A stretch of 31,005 bases of DNA from the IMG/VR virus record IMGVR_UViG_2671180986_000015. One strand, written 5' to 3'. The notes beneath the pieces are model-generated. The model saw only the letters and a program-made list of their open reading frames with translations. It had not been told where the DNA came from and did no database searches. The translations under genes and the position numbers were made by a program. The stretch comes from a virus. Lineage: Duplodnaviria > Heunggongvirae > Uroviricota > Caudoviricetes. Below, piece after piece: positions 3,111-23,322 of the stretch. The number at the start of each line of letters is the position of its first letter. Position 1 is the first letter of the stretch.

Positions 3111-3151
3111 NNNNNNNNNNNNNNNNNNNNNNNNNNNNNNNNNNNNNNNNN
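3111..3151. other. N-masked run (41 nt) in the A-B intergenic region
   Basis: Literal n characters. Confidence 1.
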
Positions 3152-3178: not shown

Positions 3179-4162
3179 ATGACTGATATTGATGATGTTT
3201 TCAACACTATTAACGCTTTGATTAACGAGGGCGACAAGTCTCAGGAAGATANNNNNNNNNNNNNNNNNNNNNNNNNNNAAGATATTGCTGATGAAGCCGG
3301 AATGTCTCCGGCAACACTCTCGGCTCTGCGTAAAGGAGAGTACAACGGTAATGTCGAAGGTATGCATGACAAATTACAGAAATGGTATCAGGTCTGGCAG
3401 AAGGGACAGAACTTGTCAGGTACCCCTGGTGTTGTGAAGACCCAGACATTTTGTGATTTGCATGAGCTGTTTAAAACAGTGCGCTCACTCGGGATTATCA
3501 GTGTCGTTGTTGGCGTACCGGGTGTCGGAAAAACCTTTGCTGCCCGGGAATATTGTCGCAGGACAGCTAATGCCTGGATGGTGACTCTTGCTCCGGCACA
3601 TTCGAGCGTAACGGAATGCCTCCTTGAAATAGCATATGCGCTGGAAATTAATAATCCGGGAAGAAATAAGGGGAATATAACCCGCGCCATTCGCAGAAAA
3701 CTGGGTGGTGGTAAAGAAACCAGTGGCCGTGTTAACCCCCTTCTGATTATTGATGAAGCTGATCACTTAAGTGTGGATGGTCTGGAGCAATTACGCGCCA
3801 TTCAGGATGCCACTGGCGTGGGGATGGTTTTAATTGGCAACCCGAAACAGATGGCGGATGCCACCCGTCGTGGGACTGATGAACTGGCCCGTCTGTTCAG
3901 CCGTTTTGCCATGACAAAACAACTGCGCAAAGTAAAAAAGACCGATGTGATGGCTGTAGCCAAAGCATGGGGAGTAACACAGGAAGATGAGCTGGACCTG
4001 CTGATGAGGGTAGCCGAAAAGCCCGGGGGATTGCGTGTATTAACTCACACACTGAATCATGCGTGGCTGGCGGCAAAAGGTGCAGGCACATCCCTGAATA
4101 AAAGTCACATTAAAGCGGCTTTTAAGGAGGCTTACAGCAACCCCAGGTTACTGAACTGGTAG
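3179..4162 (+). CDS. B: MuB-like AAA+ ATPase (transposition target DNA activator)
   Basis: Walker A GVPGVGKT and Walker B LLIIDEADHL; GAGG RBS before ATG 3179; directly downstream of the transposase. Interrupted by a 27-nt N-run (3252-3278). Confidence 0.85.
   Translation: MTDIDDVFNTINALINEGDKSQEDXXXXXXXXXXDIADEAGMSPATLSALRKGEYNGNVEGMHDKLQKWYQVWQKGQNLSGTPGVVKTQTFCDLHELFKTVRSLGIISVVVGVPGVGKTFAAREYCRRTANAWMVTLAPAHSSVTECLLEIAYALEINNPGRNKGNITRAIRRKLGGGKETSGRVNPLLIIDEADHLSVDGLEQLRAIQDATGVGMVLIGNPKQMADATRRGTDELARLFSRFAMTKQLRKVKKTDVMAVAKAWGVTQEDELDLLMRVAEKPGGLRVLTHTLNHAWLAAKGAGTSLNKSHIKAAFKEAYSNPRLLNW
3252..3278. other. N-masked run (27 nt) inside B
   Basis: Literal n characters. Confidence 1.
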
Positions 4163-4177
4163 TAAAGGACATAAACC

Positions 4178-4405
4178 ATGATGTCACGAAATATAAAAAT
4201 GGCAACGGATGCGCAGAACTGGTTACAGGCGCACGGGAGTCACGTAAATGAATCATATCTCGGCGTGGCGCGTCCGGTACTTGAAATCACCTGCCCACCA
4301 CCGGAGCTGGTCAGAAACGCCGTCAGGATTATGGAGCATAAATCAGGGGTTGCCCGTTCAGTATGGACGGCCCGCCTTAATGGCTGCCAGATTATCTGGC
4401 GTTAA
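4178..4405 (+). CDS. Hypothetical small early protein (75 aa) at the position kil occupies in Mu
   Basis: ATG 4178 with AAGGA 8 nt upstream; first gene after B. Function not recognisable from sequence. Confidence 0.5.
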
Positions 4406-4437
4406 TAACGGCTTATTTATTTGTGAGGAATAACAAA

Positions 4438-4701
4438 ATGGCAAAAGTAATTATTGAAATTAAAAATACAGTATCTGGAATTAAAGGACTGAATTTGCGC
4501 ACCAGCATTGCGGTGGACGGTAGTGCGGAACTGGACGGTGATGAGGGTACACTTGCTGGCATGGTGGCGTTACTGGTGCTTAATAAAAGCCAGAAAATAA
4601 TTAATGAGTCAGCCCATGAAGCTATCGAGATTTTGAAAAACGATAGTGTCATCACCGGTGGCCGTGTCACTGAAATGGCTGTTGAAAAAACATGCCACTG
4701 A
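4438..4701 (+). CDS. Hypothetical early protein (87 aa)
   Basis: ATG 4438 with GAGGAA 7 nt upstream; AT-rich coding region; no recognisable motif. Confidence 0.5.
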   Translation: MAKVIIEIKNTVSGIKGLNLRTSIAVDGSAELDGDEGTLAGMVALLVLNKSQKIINESAHEAIEILKNDSVITGGRVTEMAVEKTCH

Positions 4702-4715
4702 AAGGAACGCTGACA

Positions 4716-5135
4716 ATGAACGTCAAAATCCGAAATGAAATCCGGGCATTAATTCGGATTAAAGAGCGTAATAACAATGGTGGAGACTTGCGCGAATTTA
4801 TTTGTGCGCGCGAAGTTGAGGGGTATGGCGAAAAGACTTACCTGATTGCATTTGACCATTACAGCATTTGTGCGCGTTATTGCGGAGAGGCGGTATTCCG
4901 CGCCATTACGTTTGGCAATGCCTTCAATGTGGATTTATGGGAATACGTCATGGACCGCGAATACATCTGCGCGTCAGACCCGAAAGCCCGTGAAATGTGG
5001 CAGCGTATCTGGCGCGATTACCGGTTAATGGCAAAAGGCTGGGCGCGCTGCTGTTATTCCTCGCTTGTCCTGAAAGCGGTTCAGTTATCGCTGCGGCATA
5101 TTCCGGCATCACTGCGCGAGCCTCTGTTGTACTGA
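4716..5135 (+). CDS. Hypothetical early protein, cysteine-containing (139 aa)
   Basis: ATG 4716 with AAAGGA 9 nt upstream, start 15 nt after the previous stop. Several Cys residues (CAREVEGYG, SICARYCGE, YICASD, ARCCYSS), possible metal-binding; no family recognised. Confidence 0.5.
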   Translation: MNVKIRNEIRALIRIKERNNNGGDLREFICAREVEGYGEKTYLIAFDHYSICARYCGEAVFRAITFGNAFNVDLWEYVMDREYICASDPKAREMWQRIWRDYRLMAKGWARCCYSSLVLKAVQLSLRHIPASLREPLLY

Positions 5136-5147
5136 GTGGTGACCGGA

Positions 5148-5435
5148 ATGACGTGTAATCGTAAACGCTGGTCACGCGAAGACCGGGAATTTATCGAAGC
5201 CAGTGTCGGAAAAATGACCGTCGAGGAAATGGCGAAAAAACTGAAAGTTGCCCCAACCGCCCTACAGGCACATGCCAGAAGGCACGGAATATCGTTGTGT
5301 GCATACCAGGTCAGTGAGCACGACAAATATTTATGCCGTGAACTTTATAAAGAAGGGCTGGCTATTCATGTGATAGCCCAAAAGATGGAATTAAGCAATC
5401 GTGCTGTATCCGGCATTGTATACAGTGAATATTAA
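5148..5435 (+). CDS. Hypothetical early protein with two HTH-like segments (95 aa)
   Basis: ATG 5148 (GTG 5136 is an alternative); segments MTVEEMAKKLKVAPTALQAHARRHGIS and LAIHVIAQKMELSNRAVSGIV look like helix-turn-helix motifs. Weak RBS. Confidence 0.45.
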   Translation: MTCNRKRWSREDREFIEASVGKMTVEEMAKKLKVAPTALQAHARRHGISLCAYQVSEHDKYLCRELYKEGLAIHVIAQKMELSNRAVSGIVYSEY

Positions 5436-5453
5436 TTAACAGGAGCTTTATTT

Positions 5454-5978
5454 ATGGCTAAACCCGCAAAACGAATCAGGAACGCCGCAGCGGCTTATGT
5501 TCCGCAATCCCGCGATGCCGTGGTATGTGATATCCGCCGGATTGGGGACCTGCAACGCGAAGCAGCACGACTTGAAACGGAAATGAATGACGCTATCGCT
5601 GAGATTACGGAGAAATACGCCTCACAGATTGCACCGCTTAAAACCAGTATCGAAACCCTTTCAAAAGGCGTTCAGGGATGGTGTGAAGCGAACCGTGACG
5701 AACTGACGAACGGCGGCAAGGTGAAGACGGCAAACCTGGTAACCGGTGATGTGTCATGGCGTCAGCGCCCACCATCAGTAAGTATTCGCGGTGTGGATGC
5801 GGTGATGGAAACACTGGAGCGTCTTGGCCTTCAACGCTTTATTCGCACGAAACAGGAAATCAACAAGGAAGCGATTTTACTGGAGCCGAAAGCAGTCGCA
5901 GGTGTCGCCGGAATTACAGTTAAATCAGGCATTGAAGATTTTTCTATTATTCCGTTTGAACAGGATGCCGGTATTTAA
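5454..5978 (+). CDS. gam: Host-nuclease inhibitor Gam (Mu Gam family, Ku-like DNA end binding)
   Basis: 174 aa MAKPAKRIRNAAAAYVPQ...SGIEDFSIIPFEQDAGI; about 90 percent identical to the Mu Gam sequence as I recall it. Identity estimate is from memory, not an alignment. Confidence 0.93.
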   Translation: MAKPAKRIRNAAAAYVPQSRDAVVCDIRRIGDLQREAARLETEMNDAIAEITEKYASQIAPLKTSIETLSKGVQGWCEANRDELTNGGKVKTANLVTGDVSWRQRPPSVSIRGVDAVMETLERLGLQRFIRTKQEINKEAILLEPKAVAGVAGITVKSGIEDFSIIPFEQDAGI

Positions 5979-6075
5979 TACCACGACGAATATTTAATTA
6001 ATTCACTTTCTTTTAATTATGGCGCGATGCGTCAGGGGATTGCTCGCGCCTGAATCAGGACCAGAGGAAATGAAT

Positions 6076-6624
6076 ATGAAAGCATATGCTTATTTTAAAC
6101 TGAGTGACGCAGCCGCTAACGGTTATACGATTCGCTGGCTGAAAGATGTTTCTGTTAAGCGTGACAAAATCATCTGCTCATTGCAGCGTGCGTTTGGCGC
6201 AGACGGTGTTTCCCTTGTCAGTAACAGAGGGTATGAACGGGTTGAATGTATCTGGATGAATCAATTAGCGCCGGAATTATGGCGTGGTAAATCAGACGGA
6301 CTGTTTATTGGTGGATTTCAGTTTTATGGCGTTGTACCGGATATAACAACACCGGAAGGCCGAAACAATGCGACGCTTATTCAGGAACATGAAGAGCAAC
6401 TCCGGAAATATCCCACATTCCCGGTCTGGTTGTGTAATGAACTCGGGGTTGATGTTGTACCCAACATGTTTGATCTCAAATCAGTCTGGACGATGCACCA
6501 CAGCCGTGACGGATTCGGCATTTTGTTTGAGGTGTGCCTGCTGGATGGTGAGGTTAAGGGACCGGTTCCTGCCGAATGCCAGCGCATTAAACATTCTGAA
6601 TTTGTGGCACTGACGGAGGAATAA
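6076..6624 (+). CDS. Hypothetical early protein (182 aa)
   Basis: ATG 6076 has GAGGA 7 nt upstream; ATG 6070 is an alternative. No family recognised. Confidence 0.55.
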   Translation: MKAYAYFKLSDAAANGYTIRWLKDVSVKRDKIICSLQRAFGADGVSLVSNRGYERVECIWMNQLAPELWRGKSDGLFIGGFQFYGVVPDITTPEGRNNATLIQEHEEQLRKYPTFPVWLCNELGVDVVPNMFDLKSVWTMHHSRDGFGILFEVCLLDGEVKGPVPAECQRIKHSEFVALTEE

Positions 6625-6627
6625 CCG

Positions 6628-7167
6628 GTGATTGATGCAAAAGTTCTGAACGGTGTCAGCACATTATTACGGGCTTACGGACGTCTGACCTGTGGTGTTC
6701 TGGCGGACAAAATGAGGATGCCGGTCTCTGCAATGGTGTATTTCCTGCGTGATGCGGTTGATGCCGGAGTGCTGACTGAACTGAACGGCTTTTACGACGT
6801 TCCGCGCTCCCGGGCAGAGCCGCCTGCCGGGCGAAATTCAACGGAGCACCCCGATGTTGATGGTGCGCAATGGTGCACGTTCCGCCGCTCTTTGCCCTGG
6901 CTGGAAGGCAATGCCATTCCGGCACTGGCAAAAGAATTTGCGACAGGCGTACTGACCTGCGAGTCGGTTTACATCGTTGCTGAAGTGGATGACGAGATGT
7001 GTAAACAGGGAATGCCCCGTTTTGTGATGGCTTATATCGATATCCGGCTGGGTCGTTTTATTTGTGGCTCCAGTGGCTGGAATATCACCGACCACGTCCT
7101 GCGCTATCTCATTCTTGATTATTCACCGGTTCCGGCGGAAACACAGGAAATCAGCGAGCATGATTAA
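6628..7167 (+). CDS. Hypothetical early protein (179 aa)
   Basis: GTG 6628 start with GGAGGA 7 nt upstream, 3 nt after the previous stop. No family recognised. Confidence 0.55.
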   Translation: MIDAKVLNGVSTLLRAYGRLTCGVLADKMRMPVSAMVYFLRDAVDAGVLTELNGFYDVPRSRAEPPAGRNSTEHPDVDGAQWCTFRRSLPWLEGNAIPALAKEFATGVLTCESVYIVAEVDDEMCKQGMPRFVMAYIDIRLGRFICGSSGWNITDHVLRYLILDYSPVPAETQEISEHD

Positions 7168-7335
7168 GTCAACTGGCTTTGTCCTGCTGGTTGGCACCTG
7201 CGGAAATGATGCCTGCGATGCCATTCCGGTAACGGAAAAAAATCTGGCCCACAGAGCAGACATGTATGCAGGTGATGGAGCGCATACAAAAACGTTATCC
7301 CAATGAAATCTTTTATTGCGAAGAGGTATTACGAA

Positions 7336-7650
7336 ATGAATAAACCAGAGAATAAAGAAATGAAATTCACACCAGTTAATATTGATGACGTCATGGCTAA
7401 TTTAAGGATGCTGGAACGTATGCATGATATTGTTAAATATGGTATTGAGCATGACCTCACCGCCAGAGAAGTCCGGAGCATTATCAACCGTGAAATGAAC
7501 CAGGTGGAAGCTGCCGTGGCGCTACAAAATGAAGCAGCCCGCGAGGAATACATTCGTCGCAGGCTGGGACTATCAAATAAAGATATTCTTACGGATGCTC
7601 AGATGGCTGAGGCTTTTGATATTCATCAGAATCTTGGTCTAACAAACTGA
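7336..7650 (+). CDS. Hypothetical protein (104 aa) in an AT-rich segment
   Basis: ATG 7336 with AGAGG 9 nt upstream; the 5-prime half is about 30 percent GC against about 55 percent for the window. Charged, helical-looking product. Confidence 0.5.
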   Translation: MNKPENKEMKFTPVNIDDVMANLRMLERMHDIVKYGIEHDLTAREVRSIINREMNQVEAAVALQNEAAREEYIRRRLGLSNKDILTDAQMAEAFDIHQNLGLTN

Positions 7651-7855
7651 TGGTATCAGTGATTAGCTGTGATATTTGCAGGATGGGATTATTCGTTGTT
7701 CTCAATGCCGGAGCCTCTGCCGCTCCGCTTGCTGCGGCTTCGAGGATCGTTTTGCCTTCTTCTGCGGTAATTAGCCCCTTTCTGACAAGGAGTATCAGCA
7801 ACCTTGAGGCAATGACATACCCTGCAACATCATAAGGCTGTTCACTGTTTTTCAT
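7589..7855 (-). CDS. Hypothetical minus-strand small protein (88 aa), convergent with and overlapping the 3-prime end of 7336..7650
   Basis: Reverse-strand ATG at 7855-7853 preceded by AGAGGA with a 7-nt spacer. Product MKNSEQPYDVAGYVIASRLLILLVRKGLITAEEGKTILEAAASG... Codon usage is mediocre and a competing + strand ORF (7650..7835) exists, so the call is tentative. Confidence 0.35.
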   Translation of the reverse strand: MKNSEQPYDVAGYVIASRLLILLVRKGLITAEEGKTILEAAASGAAEAPALRTTNNPILQISQLITDTISLLDQDSDEYQKPQPSEHP

Positions 7856-7928
7856 AAAAAGTTTCCTCTGTTTAGTGAGTGGATTCTGGCGGTGTTGCCG
7901 CACCGCCCCCTTTTCTGGAGGTACGATA

Positions 7929-8480
7929 ATGAATCGCACATCCCTGATTAAATTAATTCATGTCGCCCGTCGTGATCTACAACTCGACGATGACACTTAC
8001 CGCGCCTTTCTGGTGCAGCACACGGGCAAAACCAGTTGCCGCGAGCTGTCCGTTGCACAACTGGAACGTGTGCTCGATGCCATGAAAGAGCGCGGTTTTA
8101 AGAAGCAGAAAAAACATCCCCGCCGTCGCTTTAAGGGGCATGTCACACCGCGCGAGAAGATTTATAAAATCTGGCAGCAGATGTTCCTTGATGGTTTCGT
8201 CTCCGATATCAGCGACGCTGCGCTGGACAAATACGTTGAACGCCTGACGGCCAGACGTAATGGCGGTCAGGGTGTTTCCACGCTGGCCTGGTGTCACGGG
8301 GAATCGTTGCATGTTGTGCTCGAAACGCTCAAACAGTGGCATATGCGCTGCATCCGGGAAGCCTTTGCCCGACATGGTGTGCCTTTACCTGTGAGCGAAA
8401 CCGGGCGGAAGCTGCGCGGCTATGATGCACTGACCAGTGCATATGCCCGCGCACGAAACAGCGGGAGAATTGCTGTATGA
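7929..8480 (+). CDS. gemA: GemA-like protein (Mu gp16 family)
   Basis: ATG 7929 with GGAGG 7 nt upstream (MNRTSLIKLIHVARRDLQLDDDTYRAF...); N-terminal motif and position immediately upstream of mor match Mu gemA as I recall it. Confidence 0.65.
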   Translation: MNRTSLIKLIHVARRDLQLDDDTYRAFLVQHTGKTSCRELSVAQLERVLDAMKERGFKKQKKHPRRRFKGHVTPREKIYKIWQQMFLDGFVSDISDAALDKYVERLTARRNGGQGVSTLAWCHGESLHVVLETLKQWHMRCIREAFARHGVPLPVSETGRKLRGYDALTSAYARARNSGRIAV

Positions 8481-11887: not shown

Positions 11888-12798
11888 NNNNNNNNNNNNN
11901 NNNNNNNNNNNNNNNNNNNNNNNNNNNNNNNNNNNNNNNNNNNNNNNNNNNNNNNNNNNNNNNNNNNNNNNNNNNNNNNNNNNNNNNNNNNNNNNNNNNN
12001 NNNNNNNNNNNNNNNNNNNNNNNNNNNNNNNNNNNNNNNNNNNNNNNNNNNNNNNNNNNNNNNNNNNNNNNNNNNNNNNNNNNNNNNNNNNNNNNNNNNN
12101 NNNNNNNNNNNNNNNNNNNNNNNNNNNNNNNNNNNNNNNNNNNNNNNNNNNNNNNNNNNNNNNNNNNNNNNNNNNNNNNNNNNNNNNNNNNNNNNNNNNN
12201 NNNNNNNNNNNNNNNNNNNNNNNNNNNNNNNNNNNNNNNNNNNNNNNNNNNNNNNNNNNNNNNNNNNNNNNNNNNNNNNNNNNNNNNNNNNNNNNNNNNN
12301 NNNNNNNNNNNNNNNNNNNNNNNNNNNNNNNNNNNNNNNNNNNNNNNNNNNNNNNNNNNNNNNNNNNNNNNNNNNNNNNNNNNNNNNNNNNNNNNNNNNN
12401 NNNNNNNNNNNNNNNNNNNNNNNNNNNNNNNNNNNNNNNNNNNNNNNNNNNNNNNNNNNNNNNNNNNNNNNNNNNNNNNNNNNNNNNNNNNNNNNNNNNN
12501 NNNNNNNNNNNNNNNNNNNNNNNNNNNNNNNNNNNNNNNNNNNNNNNNNNNNNNNNNNNNNNNNNNNNNNNNNNNNNNNNNNNNNNNNNNNNNNNNNNNN
12601 NNNNNNNNNNNNNNNNNNNNNNNNNNNNNNNNNNNNNNNNNNNNNNNNNNNNNNNNNNNNNNNNNNNNNNNNNNNNNNNNNNNNNNNNNNNNNNNNNNNN
12701 NNNNNNNNNNNNNNNNNNNNNNNNNNNNNNNNNNNNNNNNNNNNNNNNNNNNNNNNNNNNNNNNNNNNNNNNNNNNNNNNNNNNNNNNNNNNNNNNNN
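11888..12798. other. N-masked run (911 nt)
   Basis: Literal n characters; hides the end of the gp27-like gene and the start of the large terminase. Confidence 1.
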
Positions 12799-14043: not shown

Positions 14044-14159
14044 NNNNNNNNNNNNNNNNNNNNNNNNNNNNNNNNNNNNNNNNNNNNNNNNNNNNNNNNN
14101 NNNNNNNNNNNNNNNNNNNNNNNNNNNNNNNNNNNNNNNNNNNNNNNNNNNNNNNNNNN
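14044..14159. other. N-masked run (116 nt)
   Basis: Literal n characters. Confidence 1.
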
Positions 14160-14234: not shown

Positions 14235-15845
14235 GTGNNNNNNNNNNNNNNNNNNNNNNNNNNNNNNNNNNNNNNNNNNNNNNNNNNNNNNNNNNNNNNN
14301 NNNNNNNNNNNNNNNNNNNNNNNNNNNNNNNNNNNNNNNNNNNNNNNNNNNNNNNNNNNNNNNNNNNNNNNNNNNNNNNNNNNNNNNNNNNNNNNNNNNN
14401 NNNNNNNNNNNNNNNNNNNNNNNNNNNNNNNNNNNNNNNNNNNNNNNNNNNNNNNNNNNNNNNNNNNNNNNNNNNNNNNNNNNNNNNNNNNNNNNNNNNN
14501 NNNNNNNNNNNNNNNNNNNNNNNNNNNNNNNNNNNNNNNNNNNNNNNNNNNNNNNNNNNNNNNNNNNNNNNNNNNNNNNNNNNNNNNNNNGGTGGCCGCC
14601 AGTGATGACGATGCCGACGTGCAGCTGGCGGACGCCATCCGTGCGCTGATGGAAGCCCCGCAAATCCCCGAACTGATGTTTGATTTGCTCGACGGGCTGG
14701 GAAAAGGCGTGGCGGTCTGTGAAATCCTGTGGGACACCCGCAACAACCACTGGATGCCCCGTGATTATGAGTGGGTTGATCCCCGTTTTCTGAAAGCCGA
14801 AAAGCCCACGCTGCGCCAGTTCCGCCTGCTGACGGACGATGAACCGGTGGATGGCGTACCGCTGACACCGGGAAAATTCATTGTTCACCAGCCGCGTCTG
14901 AAATCCGGTCTGCCGCTGCGTAACGGTCTGGCCCGTCTGGTGGCTGTGATGTACATGCTGAAATCCTTTACCGTGCGCGACTGGTGGGCATTTGCGGAAA
15001 AATTCGGCATTCCGGTTACGGTGGGGAAATACGGTCCCAACGCCACGGAGGAGCAAATCCGCGTGCTGATTGATGCGATTGCCTCCATTGCCTCGGATGC
15101 CGGGTGTGCCATTCCGCAGTCCATGCAACTGGAGATGCAGGAAACCGCCAGCCGGAATAACGGCGGCGCACTGTTCCGTGAAATGGCGGAATGGTGCGAT
15201 GCGCAAATCAGTAAGGCTGTGCTGGGGCAGACCATGACCACGGATAACGGCAGTTCGCGTTCACAGGCGGACGTGCACAATCAGGTGCGCATGGACATTG
15301 TGCGCTGGGACGCGCGACAGCTGGCTAACACGCTGAATGAATATCTGGTGCGGCCCTACATCGAGGCCAACTACGGGCCACAGGCGCACTACCCCCGTGT
15401 TGTTCTGCGTATCAGTGAAGCCGAAGATCTGAAGGCGCTGACGGATGCTCTGGTGCCGCTGATTGACCGGGGGATGCGGGTTCAGGAATCGGAGCTGCGG
15501 GACCGGTTCGGCCTGGCTGAGCCAGACGAAGGGGCTGATGTTCTGCATCCGGTTTCCGCCGGGATGCCGGGTGATATGGCGATGAACCGCGAGCGCGTCG
15601 CCCTGAACAGGGAACACCCCGACGAACTGGCACAGATGGTGGATGATGCCCTGCGTGACTGGCAGAAAACCGGCGAGGCGTTCACGAACCCGGTGCTGAC
15701 ACTGGCGCAGGAGTGCGACAGTTTTGATGACTTTCTGAAACGCCTGCCTGAGCTTCAGGAAACGCTGAACGCGGACGACTTTGCCCTGCAACTGGCGGAG
15801 GTGTGCTTTAAGGCGCGTGCGCTGGGAGACACTGCTCATGCGTGA
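14235..15845 (+). CDS. Portal protein (Mu gp29-like)
   Basis: GTG 14235 preceded by GAGGGAGG; long ORF whose visible part is 14591-15845; its stop overlaps the start of the F-like gene. The 5-prime end and frame are uncertain because of the masked run at 14238-14590. Confidence 0.75.
   Translation: MXXXXXXXXXXXXXXXXXXXXXXXXXXXXXXXXXXXXXXXXXXXXXXXXXXXXXXXXXXXXXXXXXXXXXXXXXXXXXXXXXXXXXXXXXXXXXXXXXXXXXXXXXXXXXXXXXXXXXXVAASDDDADVQLADAIRALMEAPQIPELMFDLLDGLGKGVAVCEILWDTRNNHWMPRDYEWVDPRFLKAEKPTLRQFRLLTDDEPVDGVPLTPGKFIVHQPRLKSGLPLRNGLARLVAVMYMLKSFTVRDWWAFAEKFGIPVTVGKYGPNATEEQIRVLIDAIASIASDAGCAIPQSMQLEMQETASRNNGGALFREMAEWCDAQISKAVLGQTMTTDNGSSRSQADVHNQVRMDIVRWDARQLANTLNEYLVRPYIEANYGPQAHYPRVVLRISEAEDLKALTDALVPLIDRGMRVQESELRDRFGLAEPDEGADVLHPVSAGMPGDMAMNRERVALNREHPDELAQMVDDALRDWQKTGEAFTNPVLTLAQECDSFDDFLKRLPELQETLNADDFALQLAEVCFKARALGDTAHA
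14238..14590. other. N-masked run (353 nt) inside the portal gene
   Basis: Literal n characters. Confidence 1.
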
Positions 15846-16206
15846 AACCCTCATCCCGAAAGAGGCGCTGGCGTGGCTGAAGGCGAAGAAGCTGCGCCCC
15901 GGTTTTGATTACCGGGATGTATGGCGGGAAGAGCACCGGAACAGCTTCACGGTGGCAAAAATGCTGCAACTGGATTTGTTGTCGGATGTGAAAGCCCTTG
16001 TGGAAGACGCCCTGCAAAGCGGGCAGACGTTCAGCGAGTTCCGGGAGATGCTGCAACCGTTGCTGATAAAACGCGGATGGTGGGGCGTACAGGAGATGGA
16101 TGATCCGCTGACGGGTGAAACCCGCACCGTGCAACTGGGCAGCGACCGCCGCCTCCGCACGATTTTTGATACCAACATGCGCACCGCCCGCGCGGCGGGC
16201 CAGTGG
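15838..16206 (+). CDS. Head morphogenesis protein, Mu F-like (5-prime fragment)
   Basis: ATG 15838 overlapping the portal stop (MRETLIPKEALAWLKAKKLRPGFDYRDVWREEHRNSFTVAKM...); runs into masked sequence at 16207. Confidence 0.75.
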
Positions 16207-16450
16207 NNNNNNNNNNNNNNNNNNNNNNNNNNNNNNNNNNNNNNNNNNNNNNNNNNNNNNNNNNNNNNNNNNNNNNNNNNNNNNNNNNNNNNNNNNNNNN
16301 NNNNNNNNNNNNNNNNNNNNNNNNNNNNNNNNNNNNNNNNNNNNNNNNNNNNNNNNNNNNNNNNNNNNNNNNNNNNNNNNNNNNNNNNNNNNNNNNNNNN
16401 NNNNNNNNNNNNNNNNNNNNNNNNNNNNNNNNNNNNNNNNNNNNNNNNNN
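16207..16450. other. N-masked run (244 nt)
   Basis: Literal n characters. Confidence 1.
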
Positions 16451-16467
16451 ACCATTCACACCGAAGC

Positions 16468-16876
16468 NNNNNNNNNNNNNNNNNNNNNNNNNNNNNNNNN
16501 NNNNNNNNNNNNNNNNNNNNNNNNNNNNNNNNNNNNNNNNNNNNNNNNNNNNNNNNNNNNNNNNNNNNNNNNNNNNNNNNNNNNNNNNNNNNNNNNNNNN
16601 NNNNNNNNNNNNNNNNNNNNNNNNNNNNNNNNNNNNNNNNNNNNNNNNNNNNNNNNNNNNNNNNNNNNNNNNNNNNNNNNNNNNNNNNNNNNNNNNNNNN
16701 NNNNNNNNNNNNNNNNNNNNNNNNNNNNNNNNNNNNNNNNNNNNNNNNNNNNNNNNNNNNNNNNNNNNNNNNNNNNNNNNNNNNNNNNNNNNNNNNNNNN
16801 NNNNNNNNNNNNNNNNNNNNNNNNNNNNNNNNNNNNNNNNNNNNNNNNNNNNNNNNNNNNNNNNNNNNNNNNNNNN
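16468..16876. other. N-masked run (409 nt)
   Basis: Literal n characters; only a 17-nt island (16451-16467) separates it from the previous run. Confidence 1.
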
Positions 16877-16910
16877 TGACCGTCGGTAACCCCAGACGAC
16901 GGAGACTGAC

Positions 16911-17935
16911 ATGCAACCGGAACTGCTGGCGCTGTGTTTTTCCCTGCCAGAACCCATCCCTGAGCTGACACCCGCTCAACTGCCGGAATGGCTTGAACTC
17001 GTTCCTGCGGGTGAGTTCACCGGGCGCGATGGCCGGACGTGGATGAACCGCAATCCACATGAGGTGGTTGCCCGTTCGTCCGACATCAACATTCCGGTGG
17101 ACATTGAACATGCCACCGAAATTAAAGGCCCGCGGGGTGAAGAGGCTCCGGCGTATGGCTGGGTGGAAGCACTGCGGGTGACGGACAGCGGCACCATTGA
17201 AGGGCGTGTTGTCTGGAGTGAGTCCGCCCGGTGGATGCTGAGCGAGCGCCGCTACCGCTATTACAGCCCGGCGTTTTTCCATGACGCAGACGGTGCGGTG
17301 ACNNNNNNNNNNNNNNNNNNNNNNNNNNNNNNNNNNNNNNNNNNNNNNNNNNNNNNNNNNNNNNNNNNNNNNNNNNNNNNNNNNNNNNNNNNNNNNNNNN
17401 NNNNNNNNNNNNNNNNNNNNNNNNNNNNNNNNNNNNNNNNNNNNNNNNNNNNNNNNNNNNNNNNNNNNNNNNNNNNNNNNNNNNNNNNNNNNNNNNNNNN
17501 NNNNNNNNNNNNNNNNNNNNNNNNNNNNNNNNNNNNNNNNNNNNNNNNNNNNNNNNNNNNNNNNNNNNNNNNNNNNNNNNNNNNNNNNNNNNNNNNNNNN
17601 NNNNNNNNNNNNNNNNNNNNNNNNNNNNNNNNNNAGAAAAACGCCTTCAGCAACTGGAAGAGAAGGAAGCCGAGGCGCTTGTGGATGCGGCCATCGGGGC
17701 CGGAAAAGTCGCCCCGGCAAACCGTGACATGTTCCTTGCCACCTGCCGCACGGAAGAAGGCCGCAAACAGTTTGCGGAGTACACCAAAGGTGCACAGCCG
17801 CTGGTTAACAACGACAAGCCCAGCCAGGGCAAGGATAAACCCGCGCAGACACTGACCGATGCCGAACTGGCGATGTGTCGCAGCATGGGGATTACCGGGG
17901 AAGAGTTCCTCGCCGCTAAACCGAAACAGGAGTAA
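16911..17935 (+). CDS. Protease/scaffold protein, Mu I/Z-like
   Basis: ATG 16911 with GGAGA upstream. After the masked run the reading frame resumes (EKRLQQLEEKEAEALVDAAIGAGKV...) and ends at TAA 17933-17935, 7 nt before the major head gene. The frame relation across the gap is unknown. Confidence 0.7.
17303..17634. other. N-masked run (332 nt) inside the protease/scaffold gene
   Basis: Literal n characters. Confidence 1.
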
Positions 17936-17942
17936 GTAACAC

Positions 17943-18848
17943 ATGTCACAGACTATCAGTTCTGAAATCCTTCATGCACTGACCACCTGCCTGAGCGCCG
18001 CCTTTACTCGTGGACTGAGTGGTGTCGAACCGCAGTGGAATCGTATTGCTTCTGAGGTGCCGAGTTCGTCCGCCTCCAACACTTACGGCTGGATGAAAGA
18101 TTTACCGGACATCAAAGAATGGGTCGGTGAGCGTCAGCTGGCAACGCTGGACGGTTATGGTTACACCATCACCAACAAACTCTGGGAAAGTTCCATTCGC
18201 GTTAAGCGTGAACACATTGAAGATGACCAGATTGGTCAGTACAGCATTACCGCCGAACGCTATGGCCGTATGACTGCTGTGTTCCCGGACAAGCTGTGTT
18301 ACGCCCTGTTGTGTGCCGGTTTTAACACCCTGTGCTTTGACGGCCAGAACTTCTTTGATGAAGACCACCCGCTGGGTGACGGTACGTACAGCAACGTTGT
18401 CGGCACCCCGGCATCAGACAAGGGCGAACCGTGGTTCCTGATTGATGAGTCGCAGGTGCTGAAACCCATCATCTGGCAGACGCGACGCGCCTTTAAGTTT
18501 GAAGCCCTGGACGATCTGAACAGCGAGCACACCTTCAAGAACCACGAGTTCCTGTACGGCGTGGACGGTCGCTGTAATGCGGGCTTCGGCTTCTGGCAGA
18601 CCGCCGTCGGTTCCCATGCAGCACTGACGGTGGAGAACTACAAAAAAGCCAATGAGTTGCTGCGGGGCATGAAGGGCACCAACGGTGAGCCGCTGGGCAT
18701 CCGCCCGACCACCCTTGTGGTGGGGCCGAAAAACCGTGCGGACGCGAAGCTCATTATTGACGCCATGCTGGTTAACGGCGGCGATTCCAACATCTGGTAC
18801 AAGGATGTGAAGATCGTGGACAGCCCGTACATCACCACCCCGGCATAA
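17943..18848 (+). CDS. Major head subunit (Mu T-like)
   Basis: 301 aa; directly follows the protease/scaffold gene and is followed by hairpins; AGGAG upstream. Confidence 0.85.
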   Translation: MSQTISSEILHALTTCLSAAFTRGLSGVEPQWNRIASEVPSSSASNTYGWMKDLPDIKEWVGERQLATLDGYGYTITNKLWESSIRVKREHIEDDQIGQYSITAERYGRMTAVFPDKLCYALLCAGFNTLCFDGQNFFDEDHPLGDGTYSNVVGTPASDKGEPWFLIDESQVLKPIIWQTRRAFKFEALDDLNSEHTFKNHEFLYGVDGRCNAGFGFWQTAVGSHAALTVENYKKANELLRGMKGTNGEPLGIRPTTLVVGPKNRADAKLIIDAMLVNGGDSNIWYKDVKIVDSPYITTPA

Positions 18849-18919
18849 CCCGTCATCCGTAAACCGCAGTTAAAAGGTGCTGTGAATGCCCTTTTAACTG
18901 CCTTTTAAAAGGCAGAGTC

Positions 18920-19231
18920 ATGAGTGAAAAAGCAGAAACCAAAGGCGCGAAAGCCGCAAAGAACAGCGCTGCACAGGAAAACCCGGCACCGCTGGCAGAC
19001 GTTATTGTGGCTGACGGTCAGGCGAATGAACCACGTCCGGCTGAAGACCCGGTTGCTGTACAGGGTGACGCCCCTGTCCGGCTGAACGTCAGGGCCGTGT
19101 CTGAAAACGGGTTCTGGCGCTGTGGCCGTTTCTGGTCACATATCGGTGAGGATGTGGCGGTGAGCGCTGCGGTTGCCACCCGCCTGATGGCAGAGCCGAA
19201 TCTGATTGTCCGGGAAGCGGAGAAAGGCTGA
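18920..19231 (+). CDS. Hypothetical head-region protein (Mu gp35 position)
   Basis: ATG 18920; 103 aa, acidic and Ala/Pro-rich N-terminus; function unknown. Confidence 0.55.
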   Translation: MSEKAETKGAKAAKNSAAQENPAPLADVIVADGQANEPRPAEDPVAVQGDAPVRLNVRAVSENGFWRCGRFWSHIGEDVAVSAAVATRLMAEPNLIVREAEKG

Positions 19232-19668
19232 TGGGATACATCACGCAGGAAGACCTGTTACGCGCGGACGGCAATCTTGTCTGGAACATGGCGATTAACC
19301 GGGAAACCAACGGGCTGGATGAAGACAAAATCCGTCAGGCCATCAGTGATGCGGAAGCGGAAATTGATTCGTTTCTGTCCCGCCGCTACCAGCTGCCGCT
19401 GGGGGTGACGGAAATCCCGCGCCCGCTGCAACGCGTGGCGGTATCGCTGGCGTTTTACTGGTTATCAGAGCGTGACAATCAAATCACGGAGCTGATCCAG
19501 AAACGCTACGACGACGCCATTAAAACCCTGCGTGAAATGGCGAACGGCACCCGTGACCTGGGCCTGCCGACGTATGCCACCCCGGCAGAAACCGACAACG
19601 GGAAAATTATTGTGGTGGGTGCCAATGCCCGGCTGTTCACCCGTAACAACCTGAAAGGGGTGCTGTGA
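19231..19668 (+). CDS. Mu gp36-like protein (DUF1320-type, head-tail joining candidate)
   Basis: ATG 19231 overlapping the previous stop; 145 aa; position after the major head gene. Confidence 0.6.
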   Translation: MGYITQEDLLRADGNLVWNMAINRETNGLDEDKIRQAISDAEAEIDSFLSRRYQLPLGVTEIPRPLQRVAVSLAFYWLSERDNQITELIQKRYDDAIKTLREMANGTRDLGLPTYATPAETDNGKIIVVGANARLFTRNNLKGVL

Positions 19669-20210
19669 TGGGGATTTCTGTACAGGTCAGCGGTGACCAG
19701 CGTCTGGAGGATATCCGCCGCGCCGTTGAAAAGCTGGCAGAGGGTTCATTGCAGTCAGAGCTGCTGGAAAGCATCGGTGCGGTGGTGGAATCACAGACCC
19801 GCCGCCGCATCATCGATGAGAAAACCAGTCCGGCCAGCGTTCGCCACCCGGACTGGTCTGACGGGTACAAAAAGACCCGCCACGGCAACCAGAGTCTGCT
19901 GCGCGGTGAAGGCCATCTGCTGGAGAGTATCCAGTACATCGTGGAAAACCGCGTGGTGCGTATCGGTTCACCGCTGGATTATGCCCGCATCATGAATGAC
20001 GGCTTTTCCGGCAGCGTGCCGGTCAGCGCCCACAAACGGCTTATCTCGCAGTGTTTCGGGCGGGCGCTGAAATATCCGGTCTGGCAGACCGTCGGTGCAC
20101 ATCACCGCATGATGAACATTCCGCAACGTGAATTTCTGGGGCTGTCTTCTGCCAGCCAGCAGGAGCTGCAACAGGTTATCAGTCATTTCTGGAAGGAGGT
20201 TCTGCCATGA
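19668..20210 (+). CDS. Virion morphogenesis / tail completion protein (Mu G / P2 S-like)
   Basis: ATG 19668 with AAAGGGG 7 nt upstream; motif QTRRRIIDEKTSP resembles the virion morphogenesis family. Confidence 0.6.
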   Translation: MGISVQVSGDQRLEDIRRAVEKLAEGSLQSELLESIGAVVESQTRRRIIDEKTSPASVRHPDWSDGYKKTRHGNQSLLRGEGHLLESIQYIVENRVVRIGSPLDYARIMNDGFSGSVPVSAHKRLISQCFGRALKYPVWQTVGAHHRMMNIPQREFLGLSSASQQELQQVISHFWKEVLP

Positions 20211-20818
20211 CAGAACAACGCCCTGAACTGCGCACACCGGGGAGCACCGTTGCGGCCGCAGAGCGCATTGTGGCCTGGCTGCAGACGGCCCTTCAGGGGG
20301 ACACCCCCGACCGGGCTGATGTGGTGGAGCGTCACATCGGCCAGTTCAACAGCACGGATGAAGTGAAACGCTATCTGTCCGGTCGCACCGGCTGTATCCG
20401 GGTAGCTGCCCTGCGTGTCCGGGATATCAACCCGCGCGGCGGGCTGTCCGGTCTGGTTACCTGGGTGGCTTACATCATGGCGACGGATTCGTGGGGGTAC
20501 TCCCGCGACGTGCGCTGTGAAGTGCTGGCCGGGAAGGTGATCAAACGCCTGCTGTCGTCGGATGCCACCGGGGGCATGGGGGCTGAACGTATGGCCGCTG
20601 ATGTGCGGGCAGACAACATTTACTCCGTCAGCCTCGACGGGCTGGGTGTCACCATGTGGGCGGTGACGTGGGAGCAGGAATTCCGGCTGGATGAAGAGAT
20701 TGATCTCGCCGCGCTCCCTGATTTCCTGCGCCTCGGGGCAACGCTGCGCTGCGGCGAACACACTGAAATTAACGACGTGATCCATGTACGGGGTGACGAT
20801 GGAACAGAAACTGATTAA
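20207..20818 (+). CDS. Mu gp37-like structural protein (DUF1834-type)
   Basis: ATG 20207 with GGAGG upstream, overlapping the previous stop; 203 aa; lies between the morphogenesis gene and the sheath. Confidence 0.55.
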   Translation: MTEQRPELRTPGSTVAAAERIVAWLQTALQGDTPDRADVVERHIGQFNSTDEVKRYLSGRTGCIRVAALRVRDINPRGGLSGLVTWVAYIMATDSWGYSRDVRCEVLAGKVIKRLLSSDATGGMGAERMAADVRADNIYSVSLDGLGVTMWAVTWEQEFRLDEEIDLAALPDFLRLGATLRCGEHTEINDVIHVRGDDGTETD

Positions 20819-20984
20819 GCCAGCGCGGGAAAACGTCCGTGTCCGTAAACCGGATGGCGCACATTTATCCCCGGAAGGGGAACGTCTCAACGTCTGCGCT
20901 TACTGGCTGCGCCGTGAAGCCGAGGGAGATGTGGAAATAACCACACTTCCGAAAAATAACAACAAAACCAGAGGGAAAAAATAA
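20799..20984 (+). CDS. Small protein, Mu gp38-like (DUF2635-type)
   Basis: 61 aa MEQKLIKPARENVRVRKPDGAHLSPEGERLNVCAYWLRREAEGDV...; immediately upstream of the sheath gene. Start chosen at ATG 20799 rather than the overlapping track start. Confidence 0.55.
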   Translation: MEQKLIKPARENVRVRKPDGAHLSPEGERLNVCAYWLRREAEGDVEITTLPKNNNKTRGKK

Positions 20985-22459
20985 TGTCGCTGGGTTCCAT
21001 TCCTGATGATATCCGCGTCCCGCTTGTCTGGATCGATATCGACAATTCACAGGCGCTGGAGGGTGCATCCGCGCAAAGCCGAAAAATTCTGGTCATGGGC
21101 CATGCGGTATCGTCCGGCAGCGCAGACGCCCTGTCACTGACCCGCATCACCAGTGACAGCCAGGCAGACCAGCTTTATGGCAAAGGGTCGATGCTGGCTG
21201 AAATGCTCAAAATGCTGCGTCGTGCCAACACGTACACGGAAACCTGGGCGATGCCGGTTGCCGCTCCTGAAGGCGCTGCCGCAAAAGCCACGCTGACCGT
21301 GCTGGGTACAGCGACCGAAGCCGGAACGGTGGCACTGCTGATTAACGGTGTGTCCGTTCAGGTGAGCGTGAGCGCCGGGGATACGAAGGAAAACATTGCA
21401 AAAGCCATTGCTGATGCGGTGACGAAAAAGCCTGCCACGCAGGTGGCCGCTGCGGTGAAGGATGATGCCACGGATACCGTGGAGCTGACCGTGAACTGGC
21501 ACGGCGTCACCGGCAACGGTGCCGACGTTCGCCTGAACTACCACACCGGTGAAGCCTTCCCGGCAGGTGTGAAGGTGACCGCAACCGCGTTTACCGGCGG
21601 CACCGGGACACCGGAAATGGCAGACGCCGTTGCGGCCATCGGCCCGGAGTGGTTTACCGATATCATCGCCCCGTTCACCGACACGAAAAGCCTGAACACC
21701 CTGCGTGATGAACTGCTGAACCGCTGGGGGCCGCTCAAAATGATGGAAGCGCAGCTGTGGACGGCGTTTCGTGGCACACACGGGGAAACCGGCACGTTTG
21801 GTGAAACCCGCAATGACTGGCTGATTAGCTGTATCGGCACCAACCTGTCACCGCACCCGGCGTGGATGTGGGCCGCGTCATACGGCGCAACGGCAGCGTA
21901 TCACCTTGCCATTGACCCGGCGCGACCGCTTCAGACGCTGGTCCTGACCGGCATTCTGCCGCCTGCGCGTAATGTTCGCTGGGATATGCCGGAGCGTAAT
22001 CTGCTGCTGCATGACGGCATTGCCACGCACATGGTGGACGCCGGGGATAACGTCTGCATCGAGCGCGAAATCACCATGTACCGGGTTAACCAGTACGGTG
22101 ATGCGGATGTGTCGTACCTGGATGTGCAGTCACCCGCCACGCTGGGCCGTATCCGTTACATCATCAAGAACCGTTTCACGAACCGTTATCCGCGCCACAA
22201 GCTGGCGGATGATGACGTGCTGGACTCGCTGGATGCGGGGCAGCCGGTGATGACGCCGAAGCTGTGCACCGCAGAACTGCTGGATATCTGCCAGACCGAA
22301 CTTCTCCCGGCGGGCCTTGTGGAGAACTTCAGCGATTACAAAGACACGCTTCAGGTGACACGTGACAGCAGTGATAAAAACCGCCTGAACTTTATCTGCC
22401 ACCCGAATCTGGTGAACCAGCTGCGTGTGCTGGCAGGCCTGATTCAGTTCAAGCTTTAA
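20984..22459 (+). CDS. Tail sheath protein (Mu L-like)
   Basis: 491 aa; GAGGGA RBS; followed by a small tube-sized gene, the standard contractile-tail order. Confidence 0.88.
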   Translation: MSLGSIPDDIRVPLVWIDIDNSQALEGASAQSRKILVMGHAVSSGSADALSLTRITSDSQADQLYGKGSMLAEMLKMLRRANTYTETWAMPVAAPEGAAAKATLTVLGTATEAGTVALLINGVSVQVSVSAGDTKENIAKAIADAVTKKPATQVAAAVKDDATDTVELTVNWHGVTGNGADVRLNYHTGEAFPAGVKVTATAFTGGTGTPEMADAVAAIGPEWFTDIIAPFTDTKSLNTLRDELLNRWGPLKMMEAQLWTAFRGTHGETGTFGETRNDWLISCIGTNLSPHPAWMWAASYGATAAYHLAIDPARPLQTLVLTGILPPARNVRWDMPERNLLLHDGIATHMVDAGDNVCIEREITMYRVNQYGDADVSYLDVQSPATLGRIRYIIKNRFTNRYPRHKLADDDVLDSLDAGQPVMTPKLCTAELLDICQTELLPAGLVENFSDYKDTLQVTRDSSDKNRLNFICHPNLVNQLRVLAGLIQFKL

Positions 22460-22468
22460 GGGGGCCAC

Positions 22469-22825
22469 ATGGCAAAAATTCTTGGTATGGCGACCATTCG
22501 CGTGAATGGCCGCGAAATTAAAACCGAGGGGAAATCCACGCTGAATCCGGGCGGCTTCAGCCGCACCCAGCATATGGGCGGCGGCAAGGTCTGGGGTATC
22601 TCCAGCAAGATGGCCTCGCCGTCCATCAAGGTAACCATTGCGGCGGCAGCGGATATGGACGTGATTGAAATCAGCAGCTGGGAAGATGTCACGGTGATGT
22701 TCTACGGCGACAACGGCCTGAACTACATGATGACGGGTTCCGCCACGGATAACCCGGCAGAGCTGGACGAGGATTCCGGCACCATCAGTGCCAACTTTAT
22801 CGGTGAAAAATGCGTGAAGGTGTGA
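22469..22825 (+). CDS. Tail tube protein (Mu M-like)
   Basis: 118 aa immediately after the sheath gene. Confidence 0.8.
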   Translation: MAKILGMATIRVNGREIKTEGKSTLNPGGFSRTQHMGGGKVWGISSKMASPSIKVTIAAAADMDVIEISSWEDVTVMFYGDNGLNYMMTGSATDNPAELDEDSGTISANFIGEKCVKV

Positions 22826-22826
22826 C

Positions 22827-23222
22827 ATGGCCGCAATGGAATTTGAACTGAAACACGGGCTTCTGACCGGCAAAGGCACGGCAGATGAAACCCTGCATAA
22901 AACCGTGAAACTGCGCGAACTGACCGCCAGTGATGTGATTGATGCGCAACTGGCCGCAGAACGCGTCGTCATGGGCGGGAACGGAAAGGCGGTGGCCTAC
23001 TGTTCTGAGGTGCTGATGGGACTGGAGATGATGCGCCGTCAGGTTGCGTCAATCGGTAATATCCCCGGCCCGCTGGACATGAAACAGCTGCGAATGCTCC
23101 ACCCGGCAGACCTTGAGCTTATCAGCACGAAAGCGGCTGTGCTGGATGACATGCTTGAGGAGGTGGCAACGCGGGGGCGAACTGATGCCGCTGGCGTCGG
23201 CACTGATGAACCTGCTGGTTAA
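22827..23222 (+). CDS. Tail assembly chaperone (Mu gp41-like)
   Basis: 131 aa between the tube and tape measure genes; an overlapping +1 frame ORF extends to 23322. Confidence 0.7.
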   Translation: MAAMEFELKHGLLTGKGTADETLHKTVKLRELTASDVIDAQLAAERVVMGGNGKAVAYCSEVLMGLEMMRRQVASIGNIPGPLDMKQLRMLHPADLELISTKAAVLDDMLEEVATRGRTDAAGVGTDEPAG

Positions 23223-23322
23223 CCTGTCTTCGCGATTCAGCATTCAGTACCTGGAACAGCTGCCCCTGCGGCAGCTGTTCCGCCTGATAAAGCAACTGGA
23301 GAAACAGCATGGCAACAGGTAA
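23113..23322 (+). CDS. Overlapping +1 frame ORF, candidate frameshift extension of the tail assembly chaperone
   Basis: Open +1 frame overlapping the chaperone 3-prime end and ending 14 nt inside the tape measure gene; the GGG GGC GA context at 23172-23180 includes a rare CGA codon in the zero frame. Confidence 0.3.
   Translation: MSLSARKRLCWMTCLRRWQRGGELMPLASALMNLLVNLSSRFSIQYLEQLPLRQLFRLIKQLEKQHGNR

Follow-up and report, generated by a model that had tools for sequence, protein, structure and literature searches.

The genes between B and gam of a Mu-like prophage very likely correspond to the promoter-proximal part of the Mu semi-essential region

The early genes that follow the transposition gene B in phage Mu and in the Shigella phage SfMu are annotated in the order B, kil (Mup05), gp6/E5, gp7/E6, gp8/E7, gp9/E8 and gam. 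When the semi-essential (SE) region is deleted from MuBam, host viability after infection is back to 100% (Jang et al., PMC3325207). Expression of Mu kil makes E. coli spherical, which indicates an inhibition of elongation, according to the account of Waggoner et al. 1989 given by Haeusser et al. (PMC3961180), and Mu Kil is unrelated in sequence to the FtsZ inhibitors lambda Kil and Rac Kil (PMC3961180). Mu E6/Mup07 has been named gnarl2 (orf63) by Silas et al. (bioRxiv 10.1101/2023.04.06.535777; Nat Commun 2025, PMC12373910). With gnarl2 in ECOR1/ECOR22, O-antigen bands shift down and T5 infection goes up 10^5-6-fold (PMC12373910). Here we analyzed the virus record IMGVR_UViG_2671180986_000015 (Caudoviricetes; 31,005 nucleotides, hereafter the window) and in particular a block of four open reading frames (ORFs) at positions 4178-5435. 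The window carries a transposable prophage of the Mu type, including its left end, and the block is very likely the promoter-proximal part of the Mu SE region, made up of orthologues of four catalogued Mu genes.

We compared the block to known phages at the nucleotide and protein levels. A megablast search of positions 4100-5500 against phage genomes gave matches to SfMu (96.5%), Mu (91.6%), Yersinia Mu-like phages and D108; over the block itself, nucleotide identity to these phages is 89-96%. Protein identity to the annotated Mu/SfMu genes is 86-99% per gene, and the genes come in the same order. The first ORF (4178..4405, + strand, 75 aa) is the Mu gp5 orthologue kil, coding for the host-killing/cell-shape protein; 68 of its 75 residues are identical to Mu Kil and to SfMu Kil alike (91%), and it matches phrog_2743 ('Kil protein') at 7e-42 over residues 1-75 of 75. 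The second (4438..4701, + strand, 87 aa) is the orthologue of gp7/E6/Mup07, that is of gnarl2, the small accessory protein that alters O-antigen lipopolysaccharide (LPS); it is identical to Mu NP_050611.1 at 84 of 87 positions (97%) and matches phrog_10252 over its full length (2.9e-55). The third (4716..5135, + strand, 139 aa) corresponds to gp8/E7, an orphan family confined to Mu-like phages, with 126 of 139 residues identical in Mu (91%) and 137 in SfMu (99%), and matches phrog_3690 over residues 1-139 of 139 (9.1e-93). The fourth (5148..5435, + strand, 95 aa) corresponds to gp9/E8, a predicted DNA-binding protein with a tandem double helix-turn-helix (HTH); 92 of 95 residues are identical to SfMu gp9 and, when read from an upstream GTG at 5136, 85 of 99 to Mu gp9 (86-97%), and it matches phrog_323 ('transcriptional regulator, D5-like') at 4.3e-26. 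Full-length orthologues of all four genes are present in Mu, SfMu and D108. Upstream the block is bounded by a gene for a Mu B-type transposition ATPase (3179..4162, + strand; Pfam Phage-MuB_C 1.3e-23, AAA_22 2.3e-17) and downstream by gam, coding for the host nuclease inhibitor (5454..5978, + strand; Pfam Phage_Mu_Gam 1.9e-43), whose product shows 91% identity with its Mu counterpart and 97% with that of SfMu.

An earlier note on this DNA, made from the sequence alone, had placed four packed ORFs of 75, 87, 139 and 95 aa between B and gam, at the position of the Mu kil/semi-essential region. The ORF list and the sequence agree with it on the ORFs, and the order B, kil ... gam, which is that of Mu and SfMu, bears out the position. 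It had also regarded the genes as uncharacterized and assignable to no family, a view we could not maintain: protein alignments and PHROG profiles place all four in Mu, and the block is therefore assignable, its genes being, as judged by sequence, already known rather than undescribed. Clear homology to characterized Mu SE proteins was found for two of the four, Kil and Gnarl2, and this refutes the claim of novelty. Pfam, NCBIfam and PADLOC scans left Kil, gp7 and gp8 without a significant match, and for gp9 gave HTH hits that all stayed below threshold. In the case of Kil this is explained by the Pfam copy scanned, which contained no PF26843 model; all 61 Kil homologues carry a precomputed PF26843 (Kil_protein) annotation.

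The four ORFs are genuine protein-coding genes under purifying selection inside an early operon. This conclusion rests on their spacing, their Shine-Dalgarno motifs, the lack of internal promoters and terminators and their dN/dS ratios (nonsynonymous to synonymous substitution). From B to gam the intergenic gaps measure 15, 32, 14, 12 and 18 nt. Shine-Dalgarno sequences are good for kil (AAAGGA), gp7 (GAGGA) and gp8 (AAAGGA), as the earlier note had said of all four genes, but the one of gp9 is weaker (GGTGA). We found neither coding-strand promoter-like sites nor terminator-like sites inside 3900-6200; the single promoter-like match in the block lies on the - strand, below the count expected from shuffles, and Rfam has no RNA family across the whole window. 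In comparison with the Mu orthologues, dN/dS is 0.12 for kil, 0.29 for gp7, 0.11 for gp8 and 0.17 for gp9, next to 0.11 for gam. Start codons were chosen as follows: the 87 aa of gp7 are counted from ATG 4438, the listed ORF beginning upstream at GTG 4423; the 139 aa of gp8 are counted from ATG 4716, the ATG at 4692 upstream having no Shine-Dalgarno sequence; and the alternative GTG 5136 of gp9 corresponds to the start of Mu gp9. A 61-aa + strand ORF at 4248-4433 overlaps kil in an alternative frame. The database 'Kil' P0116 enters that frame after residue 53, but is apparently a frameshifted copy and no evidence for a second gene. The block would be co-transcribed with A and B within the long early operon.

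For Kil and Gnarl2 we carry over the phenotypes from experiments on the Mu proteins, and the following roles are thus assigned by analogy. Kil would be lethal to hosts in which Mu replication cannot proceed, and the change from rods to spheres that it would cause suggests that cell elongation is blocked. Its gene comes directly after B, at a distance of 15 nt, a position that kil also has in Mu, SfMu and D108 and in 67 of 67 kil loci examined (see below). Gnarl2, which has no recognizable enzyme domain, would give wild E. coli a shortened or altered O-antigen, probably by interfering with a host LPS/O-antigen enzyme, and so present an altered surface to superinfecting or re-adsorbing phages. 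The supplements of Silas et al. list NP_050611.1 at 4784..5047 of NC_000929.1, with a sequence equal to the Mu coding sequence aligned here.

The window differs from the Mu arrangement in one respect. In Mu, SfMu and D108 a further gene, gp6/E5, lies between kil and gp7; it codes for 76 aa, is Cys-rich with CxxC-type pairs and zinc-ribbon-like, and is annotated 'Zn finger' in the library table of Silas et al. (preprint 10.1101/2023.04.06.535777). Alignment to Mu and SfMu shows that the window has ~212 bp less DNA here and that a 32-nt spacer (4406..4437) takes the slot of gp6. We considered a private deletion and rejected it, because the identical spacer recurs in two other E. coli prophages, that of VL40, which has 98.7% identity over the block, and that of RM11911, in which another gene 7 allele comes next. 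The gp6-less layout is a recurrent natural variant. The other allele, gp7', is of the D108 type (89 aa, phrog_2230); it occupies the gene 7 slot and is barely similar to gp7 (pairwise E 0.001). Copies of gp7' lie at 973-1242 of our D108 contig (L005) and at 1766-2035 of the RM11911 contig (L004), and the two alleles have their first five codons (MAKVI) in common.

We next surveyed the genes between B and gam in 67 kil-containing IMG/VR contigs. The layout kil-6-7'-8-9 was seen in 16 loci and the Mu type, kil-6-7-8-9, in 10, while the window type, kil-7-8-9, accounts for 9 of the 67 and its counterpart with the other allele, kil-7'-8-9, for 9 more; 5 loci are kil-7'-9, and the remainder have poorer layouts and belong to distant lineages. 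The gp7 and gp7' alleles assort independently of the presence of gp6. With profile hidden Markov models (HMMs) we found kil together with gp8 and gp9 in 44 loci, kil with gp9 in 9 and kil alone in 14, and gp8 never occurred without gp9. A gp9-type gene overlaps the kil stop in four distant Mu-like lineages (IMG/VR contigs): on L134/L135 (3489-4018) and L143/L144 (about 3306-3851) a gp9-type double-HTH gene follows kil with an overlap of ~22 nt, and no gp6, gp7 or gp8 lies between the two. The block has a match in 92 of 5,426 complete E. coli genomes, which fall into several coverage classes. None of the four genes was detectable in Gilliamella, Haemophilus, Brenneria and other genera with a Mu-type Gam. 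The block is a lineage-specific, cassette-like accessory region with catalogued contents.

gp9 is probably a small bipartite DNA-binding protein, as judged from its predicted structure. Its homologues are confined to enterobacterial Mu-like prophages, with the lowest identity, 47%, in Citrobacter. An AlphaFold model built on a 14-sequence alignment (predicted local distance difference test, pLDDT, 79.3) has three-helix bundles at residues 10-45 and 57-93 with a linker between them, a prediction of two tandem tri-helical HTH domains that agrees with the two HTH-like segments noticed earlier in this protein. A Foldseek search against the PDB, the kind of structure-based check the earlier note had proposed, returned the bipartite DNA-binding domain of the Tc3 transposase (probability 0.98, E 0.054) and the CRISPR-repeat-binding protein Cbp1; GcrA, IstA and Myb DNA-binding domains matched as well. 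Many uncharacterized phage proteins of ~100 aa and like architecture are found in BFVD. gp9 has no significant sequence similarity to solved structures and none to the phage's own transposase. A PDB sequence search matched gp9 to RmlA at E about 1, which we regard as chance; a phage record in which the label 'dTDP-glucose pyrophosphorylase' appears probably owes it to this match. In the mechanism that we propose, gp9 would bind a bipartite DNA site and act as a small regulator or as a blocker of that site. Literature searches for Mu gp8 and gp9 by locus tag, accession and classical gene name yielded nothing beyond the papers of Silas et al.; neither gp9 nor Kil turned up in the preprint supplements, so that both are probably outside that library.

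gp8 belongs to a very narrow family. It has no match in Pfam, NCBIfam, PADLOC or the PDB, and a search of 5.8 billion proteins returned only enterobacterial Mu-prophage proteins of at least 69% identity, plus fragments; scanning IMG/VR with a gp8 profile gave only close relatives (at least 78%). An exhaustive HMM search covered 1.84 billion cluster representatives; besides fragments it turned up a single full-length cluster and, as remote relatives, the two proteins P0059 (E 1.5e-6) and P0060 (E 8e-4). These are 28-32% identical to gp8 and were confirmed as members of phrog_3690 (4.9e-10 and 8.6e-8). A further candidate, P0024 (~40% identical), turned out to be a frameshifted copy and not a distant homologue. 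The genes for P0059 and P0060 are located on metagenomic Mu-like contigs (L034 1754-2324 and L035 554-1107) between B and a kil gene of the PF26843 family, whose start they overlap by 11 nt and 4 nt, respectively. This order, with the gp8-like gene before kil, differs from that in Mu, but the pair of families is the same. From the context of P0059 and P0060, gp8 and Kil may be functionally linked in some way. For the cytoplasmic orphan gp8 itself we infer, as a best guess, that it would act in the same host-takeover module as Kil.

Several observations weigh against the roles proposed here. The phenotypes are those of the Mu proteins, from which the Kil and Gnarl2 of the window differ at 7 of 75 and 3 of 87 positions, and for Mu Gnarl2 affinity purification-mass spectrometry gave no clear partner (PMC12373910). 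A database label of Kil, 'septation inhibition', clashes with the reported spherical-cell phenotype. For gp9, no Foldseek match to the PDB reached E<=0.001, and since its fold is very common and the statistics are weak, the matches speak for an HTH protein and not for a specific function. The AlphaFold model of gp8, based on an 11-sequence alignment, has a pLDDT of 43.5 and is unusable for assigning a fold. Finally, gp8 is missing in 23 of the 67 kil loci. It is thus dispensable for kil-carrying phages, Kil does not need it, and the idea of a partnership between the two is left with two remote contigs.

We weighed other explanations for the two genes of the block whose Mu counterparts lack a described activity. 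That gp8 serves as a dedicated partner of Kil, or that gp8 or gp9 inhibits a defense system absent from the hosts screened, appears improbable to us. In the first case gp8 would not be an independent effector, but a modulator, chaperone or antidote that tunes the toxicity of Kil. The only remote relatives of gp8 being encoded directly upstream of kil and overlapping it, as in translational coupling, at an identity of just 28-32%, together with the joint occurrence of kil, gp8 and gp9 in 44 of 67 loci, would fit such a role. Yet the loci that lack gp8 include E. coli prophages with a 91% identical Kil, gp7 separates gp8 from kil in the window and in Mu (where gp6 does so as well), and the adjacency is seen in two remote cases only, in an early region whose genes are all close to one another anyway. 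We thus consider a dedicated partnership unlikely. Were it true, Kil and gp8, possibly together with the double-HTH protein gp9, would form a small, previously unrecognized host cell-shape takeover module.

The earlier note had favored undescribed inhibitors of host defense systems such as RecBCD-like nucleases, restriction-modification, cyclic oligonucleotide-based antiphage signaling systems (CBASS) or retrons. One part of this idea has a counterpart in our assignments, as gp7/Gnarl2 has a phenotype of the counter-defense type, a weakened O-antigen barrier, but for Kil and Gnarl2 other activities have already been described, so that the proposal now concerns gp8 and/or gp9 only. The genes adjoin gam, which codes for a known nuclease inhibitor, the interval varies like a cassette from one Mu-like prophage to another, as accessory and anti-defense loci do, gnarl2 next door has its counter-barrier phenotype, and gp8 is a narrow orphan family of the kind typical of fast-evolving accessory genes. 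However, dN/dS values of 0.11-0.17 for gp8 and gp9 indicate ordinary purifying selection and give no sign of arms-race diversification, and gp9 resembles a plain DNA-binding protein. The PADLOC scan, which gave no match, covered defense rather than anti-defense families. Mu gp8 (NP_050612.1) is UDP0119 and gp6 is UDP0137 in the 200-gene library that Silas et al. screened in wild E. coli (preprint 10.1101/2023.04.06.535777). Neither identifier occurs in the preprint text or in its list of phenotype-producing accessory genes (orf7, 24, 48, 63, 92, 98, 116, 126, 143, 145, 148 and 184), and Mu gp8 is not listed there for lethality or sensitization; this is a weak negative that applies to the hosts and phages screened. 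We regard an undescribed anti-defense function of gp8 or gp9 as quite unlikely.

The last alternative concerns the cysteines of gp8, which the earlier note had called Cys-rich and possibly metal-binding. The count holds, with 6 Cys and 2 His in 139 aa, including C52-x3-C56 and C112-C113, and the label fits gp6, the gene missing from the window, better. Metal binding by a Cys cluster in gp8 is highly implausible: C52 and C56 are the sole cysteines kept in all of 11 full-length relatives (C30 changes to F, C85 to S and C112/C113 to G, T or I), P0059 and P0060 keep none of the cysteines, no conserved set of at least three to four Cys/His ligands exists, no zinc-finger or metal-binding Pfam family matches, and the Cys-rich, zinc-ribbon-like gene of the region is gp6/E5; a metal center is thus not supported, as the cysteines are not conserved among relatives.

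Outside the block, the left end of the prophage comprises a repressor gene (1-621, - strand), ner (729-980) and the transposase gene, which ends at 3078. The mosaic nature of the prophage shows in its B protein, which shares only 41% amino acid identity with Mu B but 99% with B of the E. coli VL40 prophage. Downstream of gam, the segment 6019-7167 contains a 201-aa ORF with no Pfam match and another of 179 aa that has the C-terminal domain of Mu Gp11 (PF25754, 3.3e-39); in VL40 the annotation of the counterpart shows several short ORFs together with a frameshifted pseudogene. Within the early region, a 116-aa - strand ORF at 7589-7939 resembles Mu gp15 (NP_050619.1, on the reverse strand at 8162..7896 in Mu), with which it has the motif QPYDVAGY.IAS near the N-terminus in common; Mu gp15 is UDP0085 in the accessory-gene library of Silas et al. 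(preprint 10.1101/2023.04.06.535777). In a megablast search with the first 25 kb, only ~16-20% matched any deposited phage, and the late region therefore appears to be poorly represented among sequenced phages. The matched stretches were 4178-8428 (to SfMu and Mu) and 14624-23511 (to Klebsiella phage Kp4866-3, 73.6%). Masked runs of N at 3111-3151, 3252-3278, 11888-12798, 14044-14159, 14238-14590, 16207-16450, 16468-16876 and 17303-17634 break the A/B junction, B and several late genes; translations contain X there, and ORF calls are unreliable.

The discovery value of the block is small, as its genes are 86-99% identical to catalogued Mu genes and the Kil and Gnarl2 phenotypes are already published. 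Questions about what gp8 and gp9 do and what Kil and Gnarl2 act on concern Mu itself and not the window. The analysis removes the idea that gp8 binds metal, and it describes a cassette-like mosaic, in which gp6 may be present or absent, gp7 and gp7' vary independently and gp8 is optional, that helps in choosing natural variants for work on Mu early functions. The adjacency of gp8 and kil in remote Mu-like phages is the only new lead; it is a weak one, but provides a cheap, testable hypothesis.

We finally compared the four proteins to the systems closest to them. Kil of the window equals Mu Kil in length, position and the conserved motifs RPxLExxxPPxEL and GCxIIWR, and carries seven substitutions, including Y39C relative to both Mu and SfMu. 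gp8 is full length and shows nothing notably different from Mu gp8/E7. gp9 consists of two linker-joined tri-helical HTH units, as do the Tc3 transposase (1u78) and Cbp1 (2lvs), and its first unit superposes on the GcrA DNA-binding domain (5yiu) at 1.4 A over 47 residues. Unlike these proteins it has no catalytic or oligomerization domain, and the resemblance is one of fold class only. The gp7 protein has the same neighbors as Mu Gnarl2, except that it directly follows kil, gp6 being absent, and differs by the substitutions R18L, G70S and S74G. A functional parallel to Gnarl2 is found in the Pseudomonas transposable phages with Aqs1 of DMS3, a small early-region protein of a Mu-like phage. Aqs1 inhibits type IV pili, according to the account in PMC13436744. 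Both are phage proteins that alter a receptor-type structure of the host surface, type IV pili in the case of Aqs1 and the O-antigen in the case of Gnarl2, a likeness for which we claim no sequence relationship.

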